Assembly: GCA_022826185.1 (NCBI GenBank)
Contig: JAJDVH010000145.1
Location: forward strand, 2,951 to 66,950
Direction of reading: 5' to 3'
Length of the DNA stretch: 64,000 nucleotides
From: Alphaproteobacteria bacterium
GTDB taxonomy: Bacteria; Pseudomonadota; Alphaproteobacteria; Bin95
In this document: piece after piece, positions 7,383-62,345 of the stretch
Position numbering within the stretch: position 1 is the first letter of the stretch
Layout of the letters: every line of letters starts with the position of its first letter
Notes under the pieces: generated by a model
The model's input: the letters and a program-made list of their open reading frames with translations, nothing else
Databases searched by the model: none
Told to the model about the DNA's origin: nothing
Translations under genes and position numbers: made by a program

Positions 7383-7865
7383 TCAATCCAACGCAAGGCG
7401 CGATAGCAACTTGAGGCCGCTCTGGTTCAGTCTGCGCCGCTGAGGAGCGTTGCGGGGAATTCGGATCCTGTCCGTCGCGATCCAGATGTAGCGCGTGTCC
7501 GCGCCGCCGCGGTCGGTCATCCTGCGCAGATCGTCGGCTTCTTGAGCCAGCCAGTCGCGCAACTGTCGCAATTTGGCCAGGACAGGAGCAACTTCGCCCG
7601 TCTCGGCCTTGTGGACCTCGATCCAGATGGCTCGTTCGACGCTGATCGGTGGCCGGTAGCCGATGCCGTAGTCCCAGCGCGGCTCGTTGGCGTACCGCGG
7701 TACCTGTTGAAGCGCGGCGTCGAGATCGATGCTTCCGGTTATCCGGCTCCCGTCTGCGCCGGATACTTTGCGCCGGTGATGCCGCTCAAGGGCCTCCAAT
7801 CCGGGCCGCCACGCTCCATCGACGGGAGCCGAGGCCGCCTCTACCGCCCGCCTGAATGCAGTCAT
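7383..7865 (-). CDS. hypothetical 160-aa protein, partner of the upstream ATPase
   Basis: Start ATG overlaps the ATPase stop (ATGA), so the two genes are translationally coupled. No recognisable family. Possible D...ExxK-like motif (SIDLD ... IWIEVHK). Confidence 0.5.
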   Translation of the reverse strand: MTAFRRAVEAASAPVDGAWRPGLEALERHHRRKVSGADGSRITGSIDLDAALQQVPRYANEPRWDYGIGYRPPISVERAIWIEVHKAETGEVAPVLAKLRQLRDWLAQEADDLRRMTDRGGADTRYIWIATDRIRIPRNAPQRRRLNQSGLKLLSRLALD

Positions 7866-9025
7866 CCTTGTGCAGCGGCCCGGTTCGCGACTTCAGCCAC
7901 GATATCTCCTGCATGGCCCGAAAACTCCGTCAGGCCGCCCCAGCCGCTCTGCGCAACATCTTCCGAACCGGGATCAAGCTCCGAAATGTCCCGGACTCGT
8001 CCGTCGTGGGTGAAATAGTAAGTGTTGAGGGTTCCGTTCAGCGCAGCCTCGGCAATGCCTCGCGTCGCCGGGTTCAGGGGCAGGCTGAGAAGCCGGGTAA
8101 CATCCCTCGCAGTCCCGCCGTTCTCCTGGAGGAAACGGAGCGCCCAAACCATATCCAGCACATGCGGAGAATGGGTGGACAGGCAAACGCGGTATTCGCG
8201 ACGCAACAACTCCAGAACCATATTCAGAACCGCATTGATGGCGTTCGGATGCAGCCCGGTTTCCGGCTCCTCGATTACGACCCATTGGACATCGTTCCGA
8301 CGCGGAGTGCGGGCCGGCGGCAGCAGCCAGTACAGCCCCAGAAGAAGGGGCACGAATTCGCGCTGTCCTGCGGACCAGACAGAATAGGGGAGCGGGTGAC
8401 CTCTCCTTCGCTGCAGGATCAGACGGCTTTGGTGGCCGGCGGTGTCGGAGCGCAAGCCGAAGCGGCCGAAGATATTCGTTGCGAGCGGGTCCCGAAGCGC
8501 CGCATTCAGGCGCCCTTGTCGTGGAAAAACATTCTGGTTCAGACCGATTTCCGTTTGCACGATCCAGTGCAGCTTATCGCTGAAGTCTCTCAATACGAAA
8601 GGGTCTCCGGCCCTGTAATCGCTGAACGGCCGCGTCATCCCGTCCCGCAGGCTCATCACCCGCTGCGCCGGGATATAGAACATGCTTTCGCGGGCATTTC
8701 GGGACCCGCGGCTGCGGCCATAACTGTCCAGGCCTGTATCGTTTCTTGCATTGCCGAGCGTCAGGCGGCTGCTTTCAGCGTTCCATACAGCGGACATACC
8801 TTCGCCCAGATAGAGATTGAGAAATGCGGCGAACTCGTTGCGCCACGCCATTCCGAAACGCTGCATGGTTTCGTGGATTATGTGCTTGTCCTGAAGCAGT
8901 TTCAGGATCTGGAGGAAAATGCTCTTGCCGGTCGCCTGGGGTCCGACGAATACGGTCAGGTCTCCGAACCGTATATCCGCCTCGCGGACCGGCCCGATAT
9001 TGCGCGCCCTTATCCGCTCGACCAT
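7862..9025 (-). CDS. ABC-type/AAA_15-AAA_21-like ATPase (OLD/AbiEii-like P-loop NTPase)
   Basis: Walker A GPQATGKS, ABC-signature-like SAGQRE, Walker B VVIEEPETGLHP, H-loop STHSP. Local GC about 58%, below flanks. Confidence 0.7.
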   Translation of the reverse strand: MVERIRARNIGPVREADIRFGDLTVFVGPQATGKSIFLQILKLLQDKHIIHETMQRFGMAWRNEFAAFLNLYLGEGMSAVWNAESSRLTLGNARNDTGLDSYGRSRGSRNARESMFYIPAQRVMSLRDGMTRPFSDYRAGDPFVLRDFSDKLHWIVQTEIGLNQNVFPRQGRLNAALRDPLATNIFGRFGLRSDTAGHQSRLILQRRRGHPLPYSVWSAGQREFVPLLLGLYWLLPPARTPRRNDVQWVVIEEPETGLHPNAINAVLNMVLELLRREYRVCLSTHSPHVLDMVWALRFLQENGGTARDVTRLLSLPLNPATRGIAEAALNGTLNTYYFTHDGRVRDISELDPGSEDVAQSGWGGLTEFSGHAGDIVAEVANRAAAQG

Positions 9026-30189: not shown

Positions 30190-30675
30190 ATGGCGGCAGA
30201 TTTGAGCGCCGTGAATGAGTGTATGACAGACATCGAGAGAATTATATGGGGCGGTCTCGCCGGAGTGACGATAGTCGTAGTCGGTCAGTTAATTTCCAAA
30301 TTTGTCCTTGAACCGGTGCAGGAGTTGAGAAAATCTATCGGGGAAGTAAGGTTTAATCTCGCATTTCATGCACCGACAATACATACGCCTATCGGACGGA
30401 AGGAAGAAGACATGAGTGCCGCCCGGCAGGCTCTGTTATCTAGTTCCAGCAATCTTCTAGCTAAATTGCACGCTGTTCCATTTTGTTCGATGATTAGATT
30501 CTTGTCTTTGAATTCTCTACCGAGTAGGAAGGATATCGAAAACGCATCCGCTCTTCTGCGTGGCCTTTCCACCTATGTCCTTGAGGAAGGCGATAAAGCA
30601 GCGGAACTTGTAGATGCAGTGAACCAGCGTGTATCCAAGGTCGAGGAATTACTTCGATTGAAACCTTTGAATTAA
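30190..30675 (+). CDS. hypothetical protein with one N-terminal TM helix, low-GC
   Basis: 161 aa. GC about 45%, clearly below the genome average. No family recognised. Confidence 0.5.
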   Translation: MAADLSAVNECMTDIERIIWGGLAGVTIVVVGQLISKFVLEPVQELRKSIGEVRFNLAFHAPTIHTPIGRKEEDMSAARQALLSSSSNLLAKLHAVPFCSMIRFLSLNSLPSRKDIENASALLRGLSTYVLEEGDKAAELVDAVNQRVSKVEELLRLKPLN

Positions 30676-30904
30676 ATGTGGGGTGTCAATTCATGGCGTT
30701 ATTCGTCCCGTTTCAATTTGTGGTGCGCCAGCCCGAAAGCCGCAGGATGGCGGCTACGTCGGCCGTATGGAGCTTCGTTTGCCCTCGGCGCAAGGGAATT
30801 GCTTCGGCCGTTCCAATAGGGTCAAGTCGGGCGCGCCTACACCCGTCCGTTACCTCGCCCGGACAGGTTCTGCCTGTTGCCGCAATGTCGGAGGGAAAGT
30901 CGCG

Positions 30905-32578
30905 ATGACGGCCCACCTGACGCTTCGGCGCTTCGCGATCGTGACATTGCTGCTTGCGGCGGTGGTCGCGCCTCAGGCTTGGGGACAGACGGTCGAGGAC
31001 GCGAAGACGGCGTACGAGCGAGGCGACTACGCCGGTGCCTTGGCTATTGTCCGGGATCTGGCCCGCAAGGGAGACCCCGATGCCCAAGTTGCCCTTGGGG
31101 ACGCCCATAGGGATGGCTTCAAGACCCTGGTCTCGCAAAACCACACTGAAGCTGTGCGGTGGTATCTCCTCGCAGCCGGACAAGGCAACGCCGAGGCTCA
31201 GTCCGCCTTGGGAGACATGTATCATTCTGGCAGAGGAGTTCCAAGAAACTACGATGAGGCAGCAACGTGGTATCGTCGCGCCGCGGAGCAAGGTGTTGCC
31301 ACCGCACAAAATAATCTCGCGGTCATGTACGATAAGGGCGATGGTGTTCCGCAAGACTACGCTAAGGCGTTAAAATGGTACCGACGCGCGGCGGAGCAAG
31401 GCAGTGCTGCCGCTCAATTTCGTCTTGGAGGCATGTATAACTTAGGACATGGCGTTGCGCAGAACCACACTGAGGCCGCTAAATGGTATCGCCGAGTTGC
31501 AGAACAGGGAGGTATCCGCGCACAATTTAACCTCGGTGGCATGTATTACGAGGGTGAGGGTGTTCCGCAGGATTTCGCCGAAGCGGCAAGGTGGTATAGA
31601 TACGCAGCGAATCAAGGTCCCCCCGGAGCGCAAAACAATCTCGGAGTAATGTACGAAGAGGGCCACGGCGTCTCCCGAAATCTCGAACGCGCGCATATGT
31701 GGTTCAATCTTGCTGCATCGCAGACCCCGGCTGCTGAAAGGGAGGATCGGGAAAGGTCGGTGCGAAACCGGGACCGGGTTGCGGCGCTTCTGACTCCATT
31801 GCAGCTTGCGCGCGCGCAGCGCATGGCGAGAGAGCAGCAGTCGATAATCGACAACCCGCGCTTGGGTGAAGTGCTCGACTATGACCCGTTCCCGGAGGAG
31901 CCTGCCGCCGCAACCGCGCCTGTTCCCGCTCCTGCCTCGAAACCCCCGGCGCTCGAAACGATCTCCACCGGCTCCGGTTTCCGCGTGAGTTCCGAGGGGC
32001 ATATCCTGACCAATGCGCATGTCGTGAAGGGCTGTGTGGAAGTACGGGTTCCATCGGTGGGTCCAGTCGCCGTCGCTGCGCAGGACGATGCGGCGGACCT
32101 TGCCCTGTTGACGGGGCCGCCCGGCAAGCCGTTTGCGGCGTTCCGGCAGGGGCGGGGCGTGCGGCCCGGCGCGGGCGTGGTCGCGGTCGGCTATCCGTTG
32201 CGCGGCATGCTCGCCTCCGGGGCGAATGTGACGACCGGCAATGTCGCCGCGCTCGCCGGTCCCGGCGACGACCGCCGCCTGATCCAGATCACCGCGCCGG
32301 TGCAGCCCGGAAGCAGCGGCGGCCCCGTGCTGGACATGGCGGGCAATGCGGTCGGCGTCGTGGTCTCGAAGCTCGACGCCGTGAAGATGGCGCGCGCGAC
32401 CGGGGACATCCCGCAGAATGTCAATTTCGCCGTCAGCGCCGGCGCGGCGCGGGCCTTCCTCGATTCCGAGAGCGTCGCCTACGCTACAGCGCCGTCGAAA
32501 GACATGCGCGCGCCCGAGGAGGTGGCGGCCGCGGCGAAAGCGTTCACCGTGCTTATCGAGTGCCGGGGCGAGGGGTAG
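30905..32578 (+). CDS. secreted Sel1-repeat protein fused to C-terminal trypsin-like (S1) serine peptidase
   Basis: Signal peptide MTAHLTLRRFAIVTLLLAAVVAPQAWG. Seven or more Sel1 repeats (A..WYR.AAEQG.A.AQ..LG.MY). Peptidase motifs TNAHVV, DLALL, GSSGGPV. GC about 56%. Confidence 0.7.
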   Translation: MTAHLTLRRFAIVTLLLAAVVAPQAWGQTVEDAKTAYERGDYAGALAIVRDLARKGDPDAQVALGDAHRDGFKTLVSQNHTEAVRWYLLAAGQGNAEAQSALGDMYHSGRGVPRNYDEAATWYRRAAEQGVATAQNNLAVMYDKGDGVPQDYAKALKWYRRAAEQGSAAAQFRLGGMYNLGHGVAQNHTEAAKWYRRVAEQGGIRAQFNLGGMYYEGEGVPQDFAEAARWYRYAANQGPPGAQNNLGVMYEEGHGVSRNLERAHMWFNLAASQTPAAEREDRERSVRNRDRVAALLTPLQLARAQRMAREQQSIIDNPRLGEVLDYDPFPEEPAAATAPVPAPASKPPALETISTGSGFRVSSEGHILTNAHVVKGCVEVRVPSVGPVAVAAQDDAADLALLTGPPGKPFAAFRQGRGVRPGAGVVAVGYPLRGMLASGANVTTGNVAALAGPGDDRRLIQITAPVQPGSSGGPVLDMAGNAVGVVVSKLDAVKMARATGDIPQNVNFAVSAGAARAFLDSESVAYATAPSKDMRAPEEVAAAAKAFTVLIECRGEG

Positions 32579-49028: not shown

Positions 49029-49189
49029 GGTCTGCGGCGCGCGGCGCTGCGCGGGCCGGGCAAAGCAACGGCAGCGAGTATGAACCGACAAGCCGTTCCC
49101 GCCGTCCGGGACGGCGGCGGAGACCCCCTGCGAGGATGTCATGTTTTGTCATGTTCCGTCATGCGGCCCTCCCGAAATGTCATGTTTTG

Positions 49190-49297
49190 TCATGCGGGAC
49201 CGTCTCCACCGGGCTGTGCGGCCAGGGCTCCCGCGGCGGGCGCGAGCCTTGCGGCCAGCATCGCCGCCAGTTGGGGGCGAGGGTCGGTTTCGGTCAT
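49190..49297 (-). CDS. repeat-encoded small ORF (35 aa) with strong SD AAGGAGG
   Basis: MTETDPRPQLAAMLAARLAPAAG.... The N-terminal 20 aa are conserved in copy 2, partly in copy 3. C-termini diverge. Confidence 0.3.
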   Translation of the reverse strand: MTETDPRPQLAAMLAARLAPAAGALAAQPGGDGPA

Positions 49298-49531
49298 GCA
49301 TGCCTCCTTTCGGGCAAAGGGCGGGACAGGGGTGTCCCTGTTTTGCGCGCGTTTCGCGTGCGGGCGCGGGCGGGTGTCGGCGCCGGCGCGGTTCGCGCGC
49401 CTGATTGCGCGCGCGAGACGCAGGACGCACCTCTCGCGCTTGCTCACGCCGGGGGCTTTTTCGGCCCCCAGCCGGTCGCTTTCTGCAGAAACGCCGAAAG
49501 GCGGCCCCGGAAGCCGCCTCTCTCTACTTTC

Positions 49532-49558
49532 ATCATACACCAGACCGCCAAATGTCAA
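49532..49558 (-). promoter_or_regulatory. sigma70-like promoter in repeat copy 1 (TTGACA-N15-TATGAT)
   Basis: Conserved position in all three repeat copies. Spacer 15 nt, slightly short. Confidence 0.35.
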
Positions 49559-49813
49559 GCCCGGCCAGGAACAAAAAATGAAATATCCGGACATTTTTCA
49601 TGGGTCGCCGGTTGAAACGAAGCCCGGACCCGATCCGGAACCCTGACCCGCGCCACCGCCGCAGCCAGTGGACAGCGGGCTCAAACGCCGAAGCGCCCGT
49701 TGGTATTATCCATCTATCCGGTCTGTACCGCCGAACGCCCTCAACATGAGTCTTGGATCGCGACCGCTGATATTACGCAACTCTACCGCCGAGCGGCGCG
49801 GCTTCCCGCCGAA

Positions 49814-51406: not shown

Positions 51407-51819
51407 GTCGATTTCCTCCCCCGGTGCCCGTCGGCTCCGCCCGCTGGACCGAAAGTCCTCCAGATTGGACCGTATTTCGGCCCTGTCCACAATTCTCAAG
51501 CAAGCCCGCAAGGACGGGACTGCAAGCTAACTGTACACACGCCAGGCAATTGCGACGACAAGGGCGAGTAGGATCCCGATCATCCAGAGCAACTGGCGGA
51601 GCGAGCGCTTGAGCGCAGCGAAAGCCGGGTCGAAGCTATTCTCGGCTGCCGCGTTTCTGGCCGGTTTCACGCCTTTCCCATCCGCCACGTTGCCCCCTTC
51701 CTCCAAATCCCGGCTCAATATCGATTCAGTTATACCCGCGGTCGTCGACCGGAACCCATGACAGATTCGACGCCTGCCGCCCGATCGCCCCCTTCCGTCA
51801 TGCCCGAACGCCCCTCTCC

Positions 51820-51905
51820 GTCATGCCCGGACTTGTTCCGGGCATCCATGCGGCCGTGCGGCGGAAGCGGTGGAGGGGGATGCCCGGAACAAGTCCGGGC
51901 ATGAC
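51820..51905. repeat. pair of near-identical 10-bp-stem palindromes (CATGCCCGGA-N5-TCCGGGCATG) in opposite orientation, about 30 bp apart
   Basis: GTCATGCCCGGACTTGTTCCGGGCATCC at 51820-51847 and its reverse complement at 51878-51905. Lies between repeat copy 2 and the GMC oxidoreductase gene. Confidence 0.5.
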
Positions 51906-51989
51906 GTGAAGGGGCATGACAGGAGAAGGCGCGGCGTGAAGAGGGCCGGGGCGGCGGTTGGGGGCGTGCGCGGCAAGGACCCCTGCGAG

Positions 51990-52570
51990 GATGTCATGAA
52001 TTGTCATGTTTTGCCCGGCGCGCTCCGGTCCGGGCATGCGTTCAGCGCTCCAGTCGAGCAGGGCGAGGAGCTGTCTCGGATGGGCGAGGGCGGCGCGTCC
52101 GGCGCGGCGGCGGTCGGCGTCCGCGCGGCGGTCCGCCGGCGGCGGCGCTGCGCCCATGTCCTCCGCACAGGCTTCGGCGAGGGCTTCGGCGGCGGGCGCG
52201 AGCCTTGCGGCCGGCATCGCCGCCAGTTGGGGGCGAGGGTCGGTTGCGGTCATGCGTGCCTCCTTCGGGGCAAAGGGCGGGACAGGGCGTCCCTGTTTTG
52301 CGCGCGTTTCGCGTGCGGGCGCGGGCGGGTGTCGGCGCCGGCGCGGTTCGCGCGCCTGATTGCGCGCGCGAGACGGCGGACGCACCTCACCCGTCCGTTC
52401 CCGCCGGGGCTTTTTTTCGGCCCCCAGCCGGTCGCTTTCTGCAGAAACGCCGAAAGGCGGCCCCGGAAGCCGCCTCTCTCTACTTTCATTCTACACCATG
52501 CCGCCAAATGTCAAGCCCATCGGGAACAAAAAATGAATATTCCGGCCAATTTTCTCGCATTCCGTTGAAT
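51990..52570. repeat. copy 2 of the intergenic repeat element (with about 150-bp internal expansion)
   Basis: Shares the core ...gccagttgggggcgagggtcggtt.cggtcatgc ... gcggttcgcgcgcctgattgcgcgcgcgag ... ccaaatgtcaagcc with copy 1. Confidence 0.6.
52489..52514 (-). promoter_or_regulatory. sigma70-like promoter in repeat copy 2 (TTGACA-N15-TAGAAT)
   Basis: Same position as in copy 1. Confidence 0.35.
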
Positions 52571-52597
52571 CGGCGGGATAGCCGAGCGCCCCGGCCC

Positions 52598-53050
52598 TCA
52601 GAACTCGCGGTGGAAGAGCAGCTCCAGGCGGGTCTTGCGGTAGTCGTGAAGCTGCGCATTGGTCTCCCGGAACTCCCGGACGAGCGCAAGCCGGGGGCTG
52701 AAGCCGAACAGGGTCCAGCCGCGATTGCCTCCCGTCAGCCGCCAGGCGCGGGTGAGGTCGCGGCGCGGGGCGCCGTCCGGGGTGTGGGGCCACCAGTCGC
52801 CTTCCCAGCGCGTGCGGCGCAGCTCCAGGCTCGCGCCCGCCGCGAAGCCGCGCGGCAGCAGGACCGACGCGCCGAGGCGGCCCCAGCGCGTCCGGTTGCG
52901 CAGCCATTCCGCCTCCGCGCGCTCGCGGTCGTAGCCGAGCGCCCCTTCCAGCCGCGCCCAGGGCGCCGGCAGCCACGCCGCATACCCGCCGAGCTGGACG
53001 GCCGGGCCGTCATGGCCGTCATAGCCGGACGCGAACTCCGGGCGTAGCAT
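52598..53050 (-). pseudogene. 3' fragment of an outer-membrane beta-barrel protein gene, truncated at junction with low-GC insertion
   Basis: 150-aa ORF ending in aromatic ...LLFHREF with no signal peptide. Reading frame dissolves exactly where GC content drops at 53050. Confidence 0.5.
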
Positions 53051-53900
53051 CCGCAGCGCGAATTTTGATGGTCGGTGTTGTCCAGTTGCTCTACAAGGAA
53101 GCCAGAGAGGAGATTTTCATCTACCACCTTTTTGTAGATGCTAATGCTTTAAGAGCAGTGACACCGTGAGAGCACGCAAACGGGTGATTTAGAAAGGAGC
53201 GTGTTAGGATTATAAGTGTTCTTTTGCCCAGAGGAGGGCTGTAAGCGCGGCATTCTTGGCTTCATCCTCAGACATATATCGGTGATGGCCGGTCTGCTTC
53301 TTACCGGTTTGTCTGTTCGTGACCTGTAGTCCCCAGAAATTTCTGCGGCGATCTGACGTTTTGAATACTGTAAGGTTAAAGCCTTCGGTGTTTAGGTATA
53401 GATTTCCTTTCGTAGATATCCGCCATTTCCTATTCGCCCATGCCTGACGCCGCCGAACTTGGGAACGGACTTTGTTCTCGCGTATCCGTGGATTAACGTA
53501 GTCACCCTCCATATGTTCTGCACAAATACAACCGACACCGAGAATGTCCGGGTAGTCGGGGTGCTTCATAAAGTGAACATATCGGATTTCCACACTCTCG
53601 CACATTTCACAAAATTGAGAAGGTTCCCCCAAGTCGTCTATATCAACGCATGACCAGCCGCGATGGGGGACGCCAGATTCAGACCATTTCCCGCGATTTG
53701 TGTGTTTGTCAGTCGTCATGGCGAGTCCGTCAAGTCTTAGCCTCTAAGAGGGAGGAGGCCAGCAGAGCATTGTGAATTTTCTTTCTTATCGTCGTTATGG
53801 CACTTCGAAGGAGTCTGCCCTCAGTACCACTGAGTCCCAGCTGTGGCGAAAGGGCCAGACAATACCATAATGAGAGAAAGAGGGATGCTCAGCAATAGTG
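53051..53900. mobile_element. ~850-bp low-GC (about 45%) foreign insertion carrying one small gene
   Basis: Abrupt compositional change. Disrupts the adjacent outer-membrane-protein gene. No integrase, tRNA or flanking repeats seen. Confidence 0.45.
53210..53719 (-). CDS. Cys/His-rich hypothetical protein, possibly HNH-like zinc-finger nuclease
   Basis: CEMC-x8-HFMKHP-x9-GCICAEH arrangement (CxxC...H...H...CxCxxH). 169 aa. Low GC. Confidence 0.45.
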   Translation of the reverse strand: MTTDKHTNRGKWSESGVPHRGWSCVDIDDLGEPSQFCEMCESVEIRYVHFMKHPDYPDILGVGCICAEHMEGDYVNPRIRENKVRSQVRRRQAWANRKWRISTKGNLYLNTEGFNLTVFKTSDRRRNFWGLQVTNRQTGKKQTGHHRYMSEDEAKNAALTALLWAKEHL

Positions 53901-54023
53901 CGGTCATATCTTCAACCTTACGAGCGCGAGTCAGGGGTAAGCTCCAGCCCGGGGCGCTGGTCTTGCGCCCGGCAGGCGCCGGGGACACAGGGGCGGCGCG
54001 ATAGTGTATGTTTCCGCGCAGCC

Positions 54024-54737
54024 ATGGCCGGAACGCCGACACGCTTCTCGCCCGAGGGCGATATCGACGCCTTCCTCGAAAAGGCCGCCCGAACGGCGCG
54101 CCCCGGCGGCGGCGGGCGGCTGATCTTCGCGCTCGACGCCACCGCCAGCCGCGAGCCGACCTGGGACCGGGCGAGCCATCTGCAGGCGGAGATGTTCCAG
54201 ACCGCGGCGGCGCTGGGCGGGCTCGAAGTCCAGCTCGTGTTCTATCGCGGCTTCCGTGAATGCAAGGCGAGCGGCTGGGTGCGCAACGCGAACGACCTGC
54301 TGAAGCGCATGCTGCAGATCCGCTGCTATGGCGGGCTGACGCAGATCGGCCGCGTGCTGGCGCATGCCGCCAAGGAGACGAACAAGCGCAAGGTGAACGC
54401 GCTGGTGTTTGTCGGCGATGCGTTCGAGGAGGACATCGACCGGGTCTCGCACGAGGCCGGGAAGCTCGGCATGCTGGGCACGCCGGCCTTCCTGTTCCAG
54501 GAGGGCGGCGATCCGCTGGCGACGCGCGGCTTCAACGAGATCGCCCGGCTGACCGGCGGCGCCTGCTGCCGGTTCGACACCGGAAGCGCCGAGCAGCTGC
54601 GCGCCCTGCTGCGCGCCGTGGCGGCGTTCGCGGCCGGCGGCCGGGCCGCGTTGACGTCGCTTCCCGGAAACGCGGCGAAACAATTGGCCGGGCAGATGAA
54701 GGCCCTGCCGGGCGGCGGGAGGGGCAAACGGCGGTGA
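54024..54737 (+). CDS. von Willebrand factor type A (VWA) domain protein
   Basis: MIDAS-like DATAS motif. VWA fold pattern. Confidence 0.7.
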   Translation: MAGTPTRFSPEGDIDAFLEKAARTARPGGGGRLIFALDATASREPTWDRASHLQAEMFQTAAALGGLEVQLVFYRGFRECKASGWVRNANDLLKRMLQIRCYGGLTQIGRVLAHAAKETNKRKVNALVFVGDAFEEDIDRVSHEAGKLGMLGTPAFLFQEGGDPLATRGFNEIARLTGGACCRFDTGSAEQLRALLRAVAAFAAGGRAALTSLPGNAAKQLAGQMKALPGGGRGKRR

Positions 54738-61840: not shown

Positions 61841-61964
61841 CGGCCGCCCGCCCGTCGCCTTCGTCCAGCCCCGCGAGACCGCATGGCCCCTGCCGAGCGG
61901 GATGCGGGAGCGTGCGTCTGTGCGGAAACCCTCCGGCAGCGGCGCCGGCCGCGTATCGGGGGAC

Positions 61965-62345
61965 TCCGGCGATGTGTCATGAAATGTCATGTTTTGTCAT
62001 GCGGGGCTGTCTTAGCGGGGCTGCGCGGCCGGCGCCGCCGCCGGTGCGGGGCGGGGTCGGTTGCGGTCATCTGGTCTCCTTTCCGGTCGGGGAGGGCGGT
62101 CCCTTTGCCGCGCGTATCGCGCGGGGGCGCGGGCGCGCCTTTGCGCCGGCGCGGTTCGCGCGCCTGATTGCGCGCGCGAGGCGGAGGGCGCACCTCTCCC
62201 GTCGGTTCTGCGGGTGTTTTTCCGGATCCGGGGGAAGCGGCTCCGGATGCCCCTTCCCTCTATTGACACCATACTACAGGATCGGTCAGAGTCAAGCCCC
62301 GTTCCGAACAAAAAGTAAATATCAAGGACATTTTTCATGGGACGC
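61965..62345. repeat. copy 3 of the intergenic repeat element
   Basis: Shares the core with copies 1 and 2. Minus-strand promoter TTGACT-N16-TATGGT at 62268-62295 and SD+ATG at 62070. Confidence 0.6.
62268..62295 (-). promoter_or_regulatory. sigma70-like promoter in repeat copy 3
   Basis: TTGACT-N16-TATGGT in the same relative position as in copies 1 and 2. Confidence 0.35.

Follow-up and report, generated by a model that had tools for sequence, protein, structure and literature searches.

A low-GC islet at a rearrangement junction carries a member of a large, unannotated Cys/His-rich protein family often found beside defence genes

The low-GC islet and its surroundings

The window analysed here is a stretch of 64,000 nucleotides with a mean GC content of 68.3% (standard deviation 3.7% for 860-nt windows). 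Its GC minimum is an islet of ∼0.9 kb at positions 53061-53920, where the GC content is 48.4%, ∼5 standard deviations below the mean of equal-sized windows. Scanned in windows of 200 nt, the GC fraction is 0.475-0.50 from ∼53050/53100 to 53900 and 0.68-0.79 in the flanks, and it recovers after the islet. By composition, the islet DNA is foreign. A preliminary description of this DNA had reported a GC drop over ∼850 bp at 53050-53900; the drop is real, but the 45% given for it was slightly too low.

The only substantial open reading frame (ORF) of the islet, here called gene X, lies on the minus strand at 53210-53719 and encodes 169 amino acids. Its GC content at third codon positions is 0.51, versus 0.85-0.93 in resident genes. 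From the ORF, its homologues and a structural model, the protein appears to combine a Cys/His-rich, predicted zinc domain with a basic helix and a domain made of a small sheet plus a helix. The richness in cysteine and histidine noticed earlier is confirmed by the motif C37-x2-C40-x8-H49-x3-H53-P-x8-G-C64-x-C66-x2-H69; the ORF is otherwise as first described, except that two spacers of the motif had been off by one residue. The ORF is intact, retains every residue that is invariant in its family, and does not differ in sequence between two independent metagenome assemblies of this organism.

Little else was recognised in the islet. The low-GC DNA 5′ of X (53720-53920, minus strand) is without a consensus promoter and is unconserved at other loci, and the 3′ flank (53061-53209) contains a weak hairpin at 53113-53145 and has no homology to other loci. 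Across the islet, searches for consensus promoters and terminators returned nothing above chance, and Rfam models gave nothing relevant at either permissive or gathering thresholds. A hydrophobic mini-ORF of 28 codons (53821-53907, minus strand) is present at the position reported earlier, but a search of the other X loci found no hydrophobic counterpart upstream of X, and the mini-ORF is probably fortuitous.

Beside the islet, on the minus strand at 52598-53050, is the stump of a Slam (SlipAM/DUF560) outer-membrane barrel gene, a truncated pseudogene corresponding to the C-terminal third. It encodes 150 amino acids ending in LLFHREF and matches the Pfam SlipAM model (PF04575) over profile positions 163-288 of 288 only (E = 9e-7; 29 bits against a cut-off of 22). 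In-frame stop codons lie just upstream of it, inside the low-GC DNA, and a GC-rich junction of ∼30 nt (53030-53060) separates the Slam homology from that DNA. A short contig of a related organism (L113), 86% identical at the nucleotide level over 52598-53029, carries the Slam reading frame on upstream in DNA of 78% GC, and a more distant related locus displays the full Slam architecture, with a TPR_Slam part and a barrel, together with a 465-aa Slam paralogue. Because the frame is extended in the first of these and complete in the second, we conclude that the Slam gene is truncated here, with a breakpoint at ∼53030. The stump shares with the Slam translocon the C-terminal barrel strands and the aromatic last residue, but differs in having no TPR domain, no signal peptide and no first half of the barrel; a complete Slam combines an N-terminal TPR part with a 14-strand barrel and covers PF04575 in full. 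That a beta-barrel gene persists only as its C-terminal 150 codons, as the preliminary description had it, is thus borne out by the partial profile match, the upstream stops and the continuing frame.

The stump and the islet belong to a segment (51720-53975) that also contains a palindrome-like stretch and one copy of a dispersed repeat. To its right, a VWA-domain gene (54024-54737, plus strand) is the first of a conserved block (VWA-DnaJ-GalU-Ugd and further genes). In the closest relative retrieved through the VWA protein (L105; 97% amino acid identity), collinearity with the window is confined to the DNA from 53976 rightwards; instead of Slam, the genes upstream of VWA there are an acetyltransferase, RNase T and CoaE, and the GC-rich stretch of ∼55 nt between islet and synteny (53921-53975) is unmatched in it. 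To the left, relatives retrieved through the GMC oxidoreductase (94% amino acid identity) are collinear only to ∼51706, within a small membrane-protein gene (51527-51718, minus strand) that closes the left-hand syntenic block, and continue with a hydrolase and an aldehyde dehydrogenase. Since synteny begins at 53976 on the right and stops at ∼51706 on the left, the segment 51720-53975 is framed by two conserved blocks which the relatives do not have side by side. The two flanks are adjacent in no relative retrieved, and no 'empty site' could therefore be defined.

The dispersed repeat is GC-rich and 380-580 bp long. The copy in the segment occupies 51977-52554 and the others lie at 49125-49599 and, near position 62000, at 61961-62208; the part at 52175-52554 is 91% identical to 49219-49599. 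Two metagenome contigs from the same organism, 99.9% identical, both terminate inside this repeat.

Features expected of an insertion sequence, a transposon or an integrative element were sought at the islet. There is no tRNA within the window, no direct or inverted repeats border the islet (terminal repeats and target duplications gave nothing above chance), and no integrase, transposase or recombinase domain occurs among the Pfam-scanned genes near it, in agreement with the earlier remark that no mobilisation machinery is recognisable. A blastx search of the islet flanks and of 51700-52620 revealed no remnants of former partner genes. The preliminary description had seen an insertion that truncates the barrel gene. 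The truncation stands, but since the flanks are non-adjacent in relatives and neither tRNA, flanking repeats nor, in the scanned neighbours, a recombinase is present, a simple insertion is too simple a picture: the Slam stump and the islet are debris of a rearrangement junction. For this genome, the locus is small, ordinary horizontal-transfer debris.

The X family and its predicted structure

Close homologues of X number 166, share 55-72% identity with it and are all annotated as 'hypothetical'. A profile search of 1.84 billion representative sequences extended the family to 2,357 clusters at 50% identity; of these, 433 reach E ≤ 1e-30, and the members are mostly 150-220 amino acids long. The hosts are mostly Alphaproteobacteria (Rhizobium, Agrobacterium, Rhodobacterales, Acetobacter and sphingomonads), with further members in Gammaproteobacteria, Marinimicrobia, Planctomycetota, Acidobacteriota and Synergistaceae. 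The family is also found on 47 plasmids, 34 of which are conjugative, in 21 IMG/VR contigs, and in four phages. These include the temperate Agrobacterium phage Rivra, in which X adjoins the integrase gene; the gene divergent from X in Rivra has no Pfam match and hence is no recognisable repressor.

Databases of protein families have no entry for X among those searched. Pfam gave no match for X or for any of 45 aligned members, PHROG and NCBIfam gave none for X, and no family of PADLOC-DB v2 matches X at E ≤ 1. The family profile finds no sequence relative in the PDB, only ribosomal proteins at E > 0.3, and accession and keyword searches of the literature returned no description. The X family is accordingly large, widespread and so far unannotated.

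Fused members are rare. X is joined to a UvrD helicase three times and to RNase H once, and a Toprim domain precedes X once. UvrD, RNase H and Toprim all act on nucleic acids, and the fusions therefore support X as a nucleic-acid-directed module.

An AlphaFold2 model of X, built from the alignment of 45 sequences, has a pLDDT of 92 and a pTM of 0.64, the latter indicating that the mutual placement of the domains is uncertain. The model starts with a short N-terminal segment, a strand (residues 23-29) holding C24, and a knuckle, C37xxC40. A hairpin of strands 47-53, which carries H49 and H53, and 56-62 follows, and then a helix (64-71) that opens with C64xC66 and continues with E68 and H69. The remainder comprises a long helix (76-95), a four-strand sheet (107-143) and a C-terminal helix (151-168). 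C24, C37, C40, H53, C64, C66 and E68 are invariant in the family, as are four tryptophans; H49 and H69 are near-invariant, the latter being replaced by R or N in some members. The N-terminal domain is the most conserved part (75% conservation; pI 4.8) and the C-terminal domain the least conserved (47%; pI 10), and the helix spanning residues 76-100 has a pI of 12.

As modelled, the acidic zinc domain has the topology of a treble clef. One zinc ion, we infer, is coordinated by the predicted Cys4 set of C37, C40, C64 and C66, and a second site may be formed by C24, H49 and H53, with H6 as a possible further ligand. Treble-clef and cross-brace zinc fingers (C1 domain, TFIIH p44, PARP-1 fingers) are among the closest systems to X that we could name. 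The AP2/ERF DNA-binding domain was another, but the Pfam AP2 model (PF00847) is unmatched in all 45 members at E ≤ 1. A Foldseek search of the PDB with the X model returned insignificant matches only.

Genomic neighbourhoods of X

Across ∼66 non-redundant X loci, the neighbours include Gabija, restriction-modification (RM), AAA_13, TIR, Abi, T5orf172 and CBASS genes, STAND NTPases and primase-helicases. X has no fixed partner; its neighbourhoods are mostly defence or mobile-element DNA. Searched against PADLOC, 126 non-redundant neighbours located within two genes of X gave matches to mad3 (9), AriA (8), LmuB (6) and GajA (4-5), the best with an E-value of 1e-232. The gene upstream of X is co-directional with it in 41 of 62 non-redundant loci and lies at most 40 nt away in 16 of the 62. 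About a third of the loci have ordinary genes beside X, or neighbours encoded on the opposite strand.

Several arrangements illustrate this diversity. X follows a type IIG RM gene and AAA_13 and precedes a STAND-like protein of 1,296 amino acids and a Lit peptidase; it follows a PstI-type RM system and GajA-GajB; and it stands between TIR proteins and a group comprising IS21, SLFN and a retron-like reverse transcriptase. In eight Rhodobacterales and in Acetobacter it lies between T5orf172 and Abi_C, and in Rhizobium between an HTH-M78 gene and a gene for a 329-aa protein. Elsewhere it is enclosed by nSTAND3 and a protein of 1,532 amino acids, or by a methyltransferase and a ResIII helicase, where stop and start codons overlap, and in several elements it follows a primase-helicase gene. 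At other loci the gene after X encodes HsdR, AbiJ, PIN or McrB (McrB-type AAA_5); Abi_C/AbiJ and MazE genes also occur in its context, and AbiEi is divergent from X at some loci. The large proteins encoded downstream of X do not form one partner family.

A CBASS cassette of the form CapV/CD-NTase/Cap2/X is present on Agrobacterium pTi_CFBP2516 and on Brucella anthropi plasmid 1. X here follows Cap2, the usual slot of Cap3, and neither of these two plasmid cassettes contains an annotated JAB gene. Loci L035-L037 show the same arrangement.

Recurrent placement near diverse defence genes in unrelated genomes, which is what characterises genes of defence islands, was thus found for X, in raw counts taken without a background control. 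An orphan defence or anti-defence gene had been among the options offered in the preliminary description, and it fits these contexts. A free-standing homing-type endonuclease gene, another of its options, is unlikely because the flanking genes differ from locus to locus and nucleotide similarity between X loci does not extend beyond the coding sequence. Across the loci, X was found with neither a conserved operator nor a conserved non-coding element beside it.

Possible roles of X

The reading that we tentatively prefer, at somewhat short of even chances, is that X is an accessory sensor or regulator module of defence islands that binds nucleic acid, orphaned in this genome, and that the islet is a surviving scrap of accessory DNA. 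We infer for X that it binds zinc, binds nucleic acid and takes part in defence. The islet would be what remains, at a recombination junction of two conserved chromosome blocks, of accessory DNA gained by horizontal transfer, most likely a defence island that has decayed. The family would travel with anti-phage cassettes on chromosomal islands, conjugative plasmids and prophages. Within the protein, the basic helix and the C-terminal domain may bind DNA or RNA, and the conserved acidic zinc domain may sense or contact a conserved ligand or partner, so that many different defence operons could have recruited X for sensing or regulation in an accessory capacity, and not as an HNH nuclease. The copy in the window would then be orphaned, standing without partner genes.

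A wider form of this proposal is possible, if doubtful. X would be an unrecognised, widespread zinc-finger module (>2,000 clusters at 50% identity) that serves as a common sensor or regulator of Gabija, RM/AAA_13, T5orf172-Abi_C, STAND NTPases and, in the Cap3 slot, a clade of CBASS, and its fusions would reflect recognition of a nucleic-acid feature of infection. The regulators BrxR/CapW (WYL) and CapH-CapP (HTH and M78) offer a parallel: like X, they are small proteins attached to many unrelated defence systems, combine a conserved domain that does not bind DNA with a more variable basic domain, and occur in mobile defence cassettes. X differs from them in that it has no HTH, WYL or M78 domain and no detected operator, and in that it usually lies at the 3′ end or in the middle of operons and not divergently at the 5′ end; some X cassettes, moreover, already encode CapH/CapP-like pairs beside X.

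The wider value of the locus lies in the X family, which is large, well conserved, confidently modelled and covered by no domain, phage or defence database tested. Of most interest is its recurrent association, at the operon level, with Gabija, RM/AAA_13, Abi and CBASS cassettes. If X were a shared sensor, regulator or effector, it would be a new component of several defence systems that are already studied, and it would also serve as a new marker in the search for alphaproteobacterial defence islands.

Whatever the role of the family, the copy in the window could be a functionless passenger: a recent arrival, partnerless, unexpressed and as yet undecayed. We regard this as unlikely. It lies between a pseudogene stump and a housekeeping operon, neither partner genes nor their remnants accompany it, no consensus promoter was found for it, and its GC content is far from that of the host, which implies recent arrival. 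Against this, the ORF is undamaged with all the family-invariant residues in place, the same sequence was recovered in both metagenome assemblies, and X stands without obvious defence partners at other loci too.

Rather unlikely is the view that X serves mobile elements instead of host defence, as a fitness or anti-defence factor that counters or modulates host immunity or aids replication of the element. The high share of conjugative plasmids among the plasmid records (34 of 47), the 21 IMG/VR contigs, phage Rivra with its adjoining integrase, and the position of X directly behind a primase-helicase gene in several elements are all in keeping with such a role, and the strong conservation of the N-terminal domain across phyla suggests a conserved cellular or viral target. 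However, X is often co-directional with, and tightly behind or overlapping, the defence genes GajB, AAA_13, methyltransferase and Cap2; even in the 'viral' contigs its neighbours are AbiJ, PIN or HsdR; and the plasmid regions inspected have no annotated leading-region context (ssb, psiB, ardA).

We consider it quite improbable that X is a compact His-Me/HNH-like zinc nuclease, acting as a stand-alone defence effector or as a free-standing homing-type endonuclease. The nuclease reading was that of the preliminary description, and the resemblance behind it is of a general kind. As in HNH/His-Me enzymes of the T4 endonuclease VII type, which have a Cys4 zinc site, X has a CxxC knuckle followed by a beta-hairpin, its second cysteine pair sits in a helix, and a conserved histidine (H53, invariant in X) ends the first strand; E68 and H69 lie in the helix. 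In 2001 Grishin reportedly described this knuckle-hairpin-helix motif as common to treble-clef fingers and His-Me nucleases, so that the topology of X is that of a generic treble clef which such nucleases also use. A catalytic site could just as well be made up of the invariant H53 and E68, the near-invariant H49 and H69 and a number of conserved acidic residues, and the fusions to helicases, RNase H and Toprim and the presence in phages and plasmids are compatible with an enzyme acting on nucleic acid. X nevertheless shows no similarity to nucleases by profile, hhalign or fold search. None of the 45 members matches an HNH or other nuclease model of Pfam, even at E ≤ 1, and hhalign against the HNH protein of phage Rivra gave a probability of 0.05%. 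With this value, no PDB relative and only insignificant Foldseek matches, the HNH reading is unsupported. X further differs from HNH/His-Me domains in its shorter spacing, the missing Asn loop, a second cysteine pair that is CxC rather than CxxC, and the acidity of the domain. A non-nuclease fold had been named at the outset as what would speak against the nuclease, and as far as predicted structures show, the nuclease reading probably fails.

Very improbable, finally, is a functional replacement of Cap3 in CBASS, in which X, dependent on zinc or on its Cys/His residues, would reverse or regulate the Cap2-mediated conjugation of CD-NTase as an enzyme and play analogous enzyme roles elsewhere. 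The Cap3 protein is as a rule a JAB deubiquitinase (PMC10097602); the conserved cassette of CapH/CapP and CapV-CD-NTase-Cap2-X, which is without an annotated JAB gene on pTi_CFBP2516 and B. anthropi plasmid 1 and recurs at L035-L037, and a size class and operon position shared with the Cap3 of type II CBASS point that way, but X lacks a JAB/MPN motif or fold and has no JAB match in Pfam, and most X loci are without CBASS genes and without an E1/E2 gene. In the CBASS cassettes, X begins after a gap of ∼110 nt from Cap2, so the two are perhaps independent units.

CBASS cassettes carrying the putative zinc-domain gene

The gene for the 169-aa Cys/His-rich, putative zinc-domain protein (53210-53719, minus strand), here called X, has counterparts in a conserved CBASS cassette, with the gene order CapH/CapP, patatin CapV, CD-NTase, Cap2 (ThiF/E2) and X. 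This cassette is found on pTi_CFBP2516 (locus L197, 2805-7483), on Brucella anthropi plasmid 1 (L198, 2821-7483), and in three further retrieved loci (L035-L037). No JAB Cap3 gene is annotated in the CapV, CD-NTase, Cap2 and X cassettes of these loci, and the Cap3 position is taken by X.

Dispersed repeat and palindrome

A GC-rich dispersed repeat of ∼380-580 bp is present in three copies in the window (51977-52554, 49125-49599, and 61961-62208), with 91% and 79% identity of the other copies to the first. It contains GAACAAAAAATGAAT, whose GAAC-N7-GAAY pattern resembles an alphaproteobacterial LexA box, as well as TGTCATGTTTTGTCATG, and metagenome contigs from the same organism are broken within it. 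Separately, a palindrome-like stretch (51810-51915) falls in the non-syntenic junction region and, over 108 nt, shares 77% identity with its reverse complement; a sub-threshold Rfam match to mir-145 at this stretch was dismissed as chance.

Accessory DNA in relatives

Between the NAD_binding_2 and DUF2461 genes, relatives of the window organism have an insertion that is absent from the window (L106, 14368-16546; L107, 14371-16052). It is made up of DUF4365, a gene for a 380-aa protein and one with an SNase domain. In a distant relative (L114, 1-1832 and 4369-7761), Slam outer-membrane barrel genes are located on an island, where a split TPR_Slam plus barrel is accompanied by a paralogue of 465 aa. 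Two tyrosine integrases are encoded on this island as well, together with PIN/Phd toxin-antitoxin pairs, which suggests that in this group the Slam loci, too, are mobile accessory DNA.

Other patches of reduced GC

The patch at 30190-30675 (plus strand), second-lowest in GC within the window, holds a 161-aa ORF of 47% GC, which has no Pfam match and is directly followed by a Sel1-repeat/trypsin-like protein gene (30683-32578). At 7383-9025, minus strand, two genes form a module of reduced GC (0.60-0.65). One encodes an AAA_21/AAA_15 ATPase of 387 aa, the other a 160-aa protein lacking a Pfam match, and together they resemble a small pair of the defence or toxin-antitoxin type.
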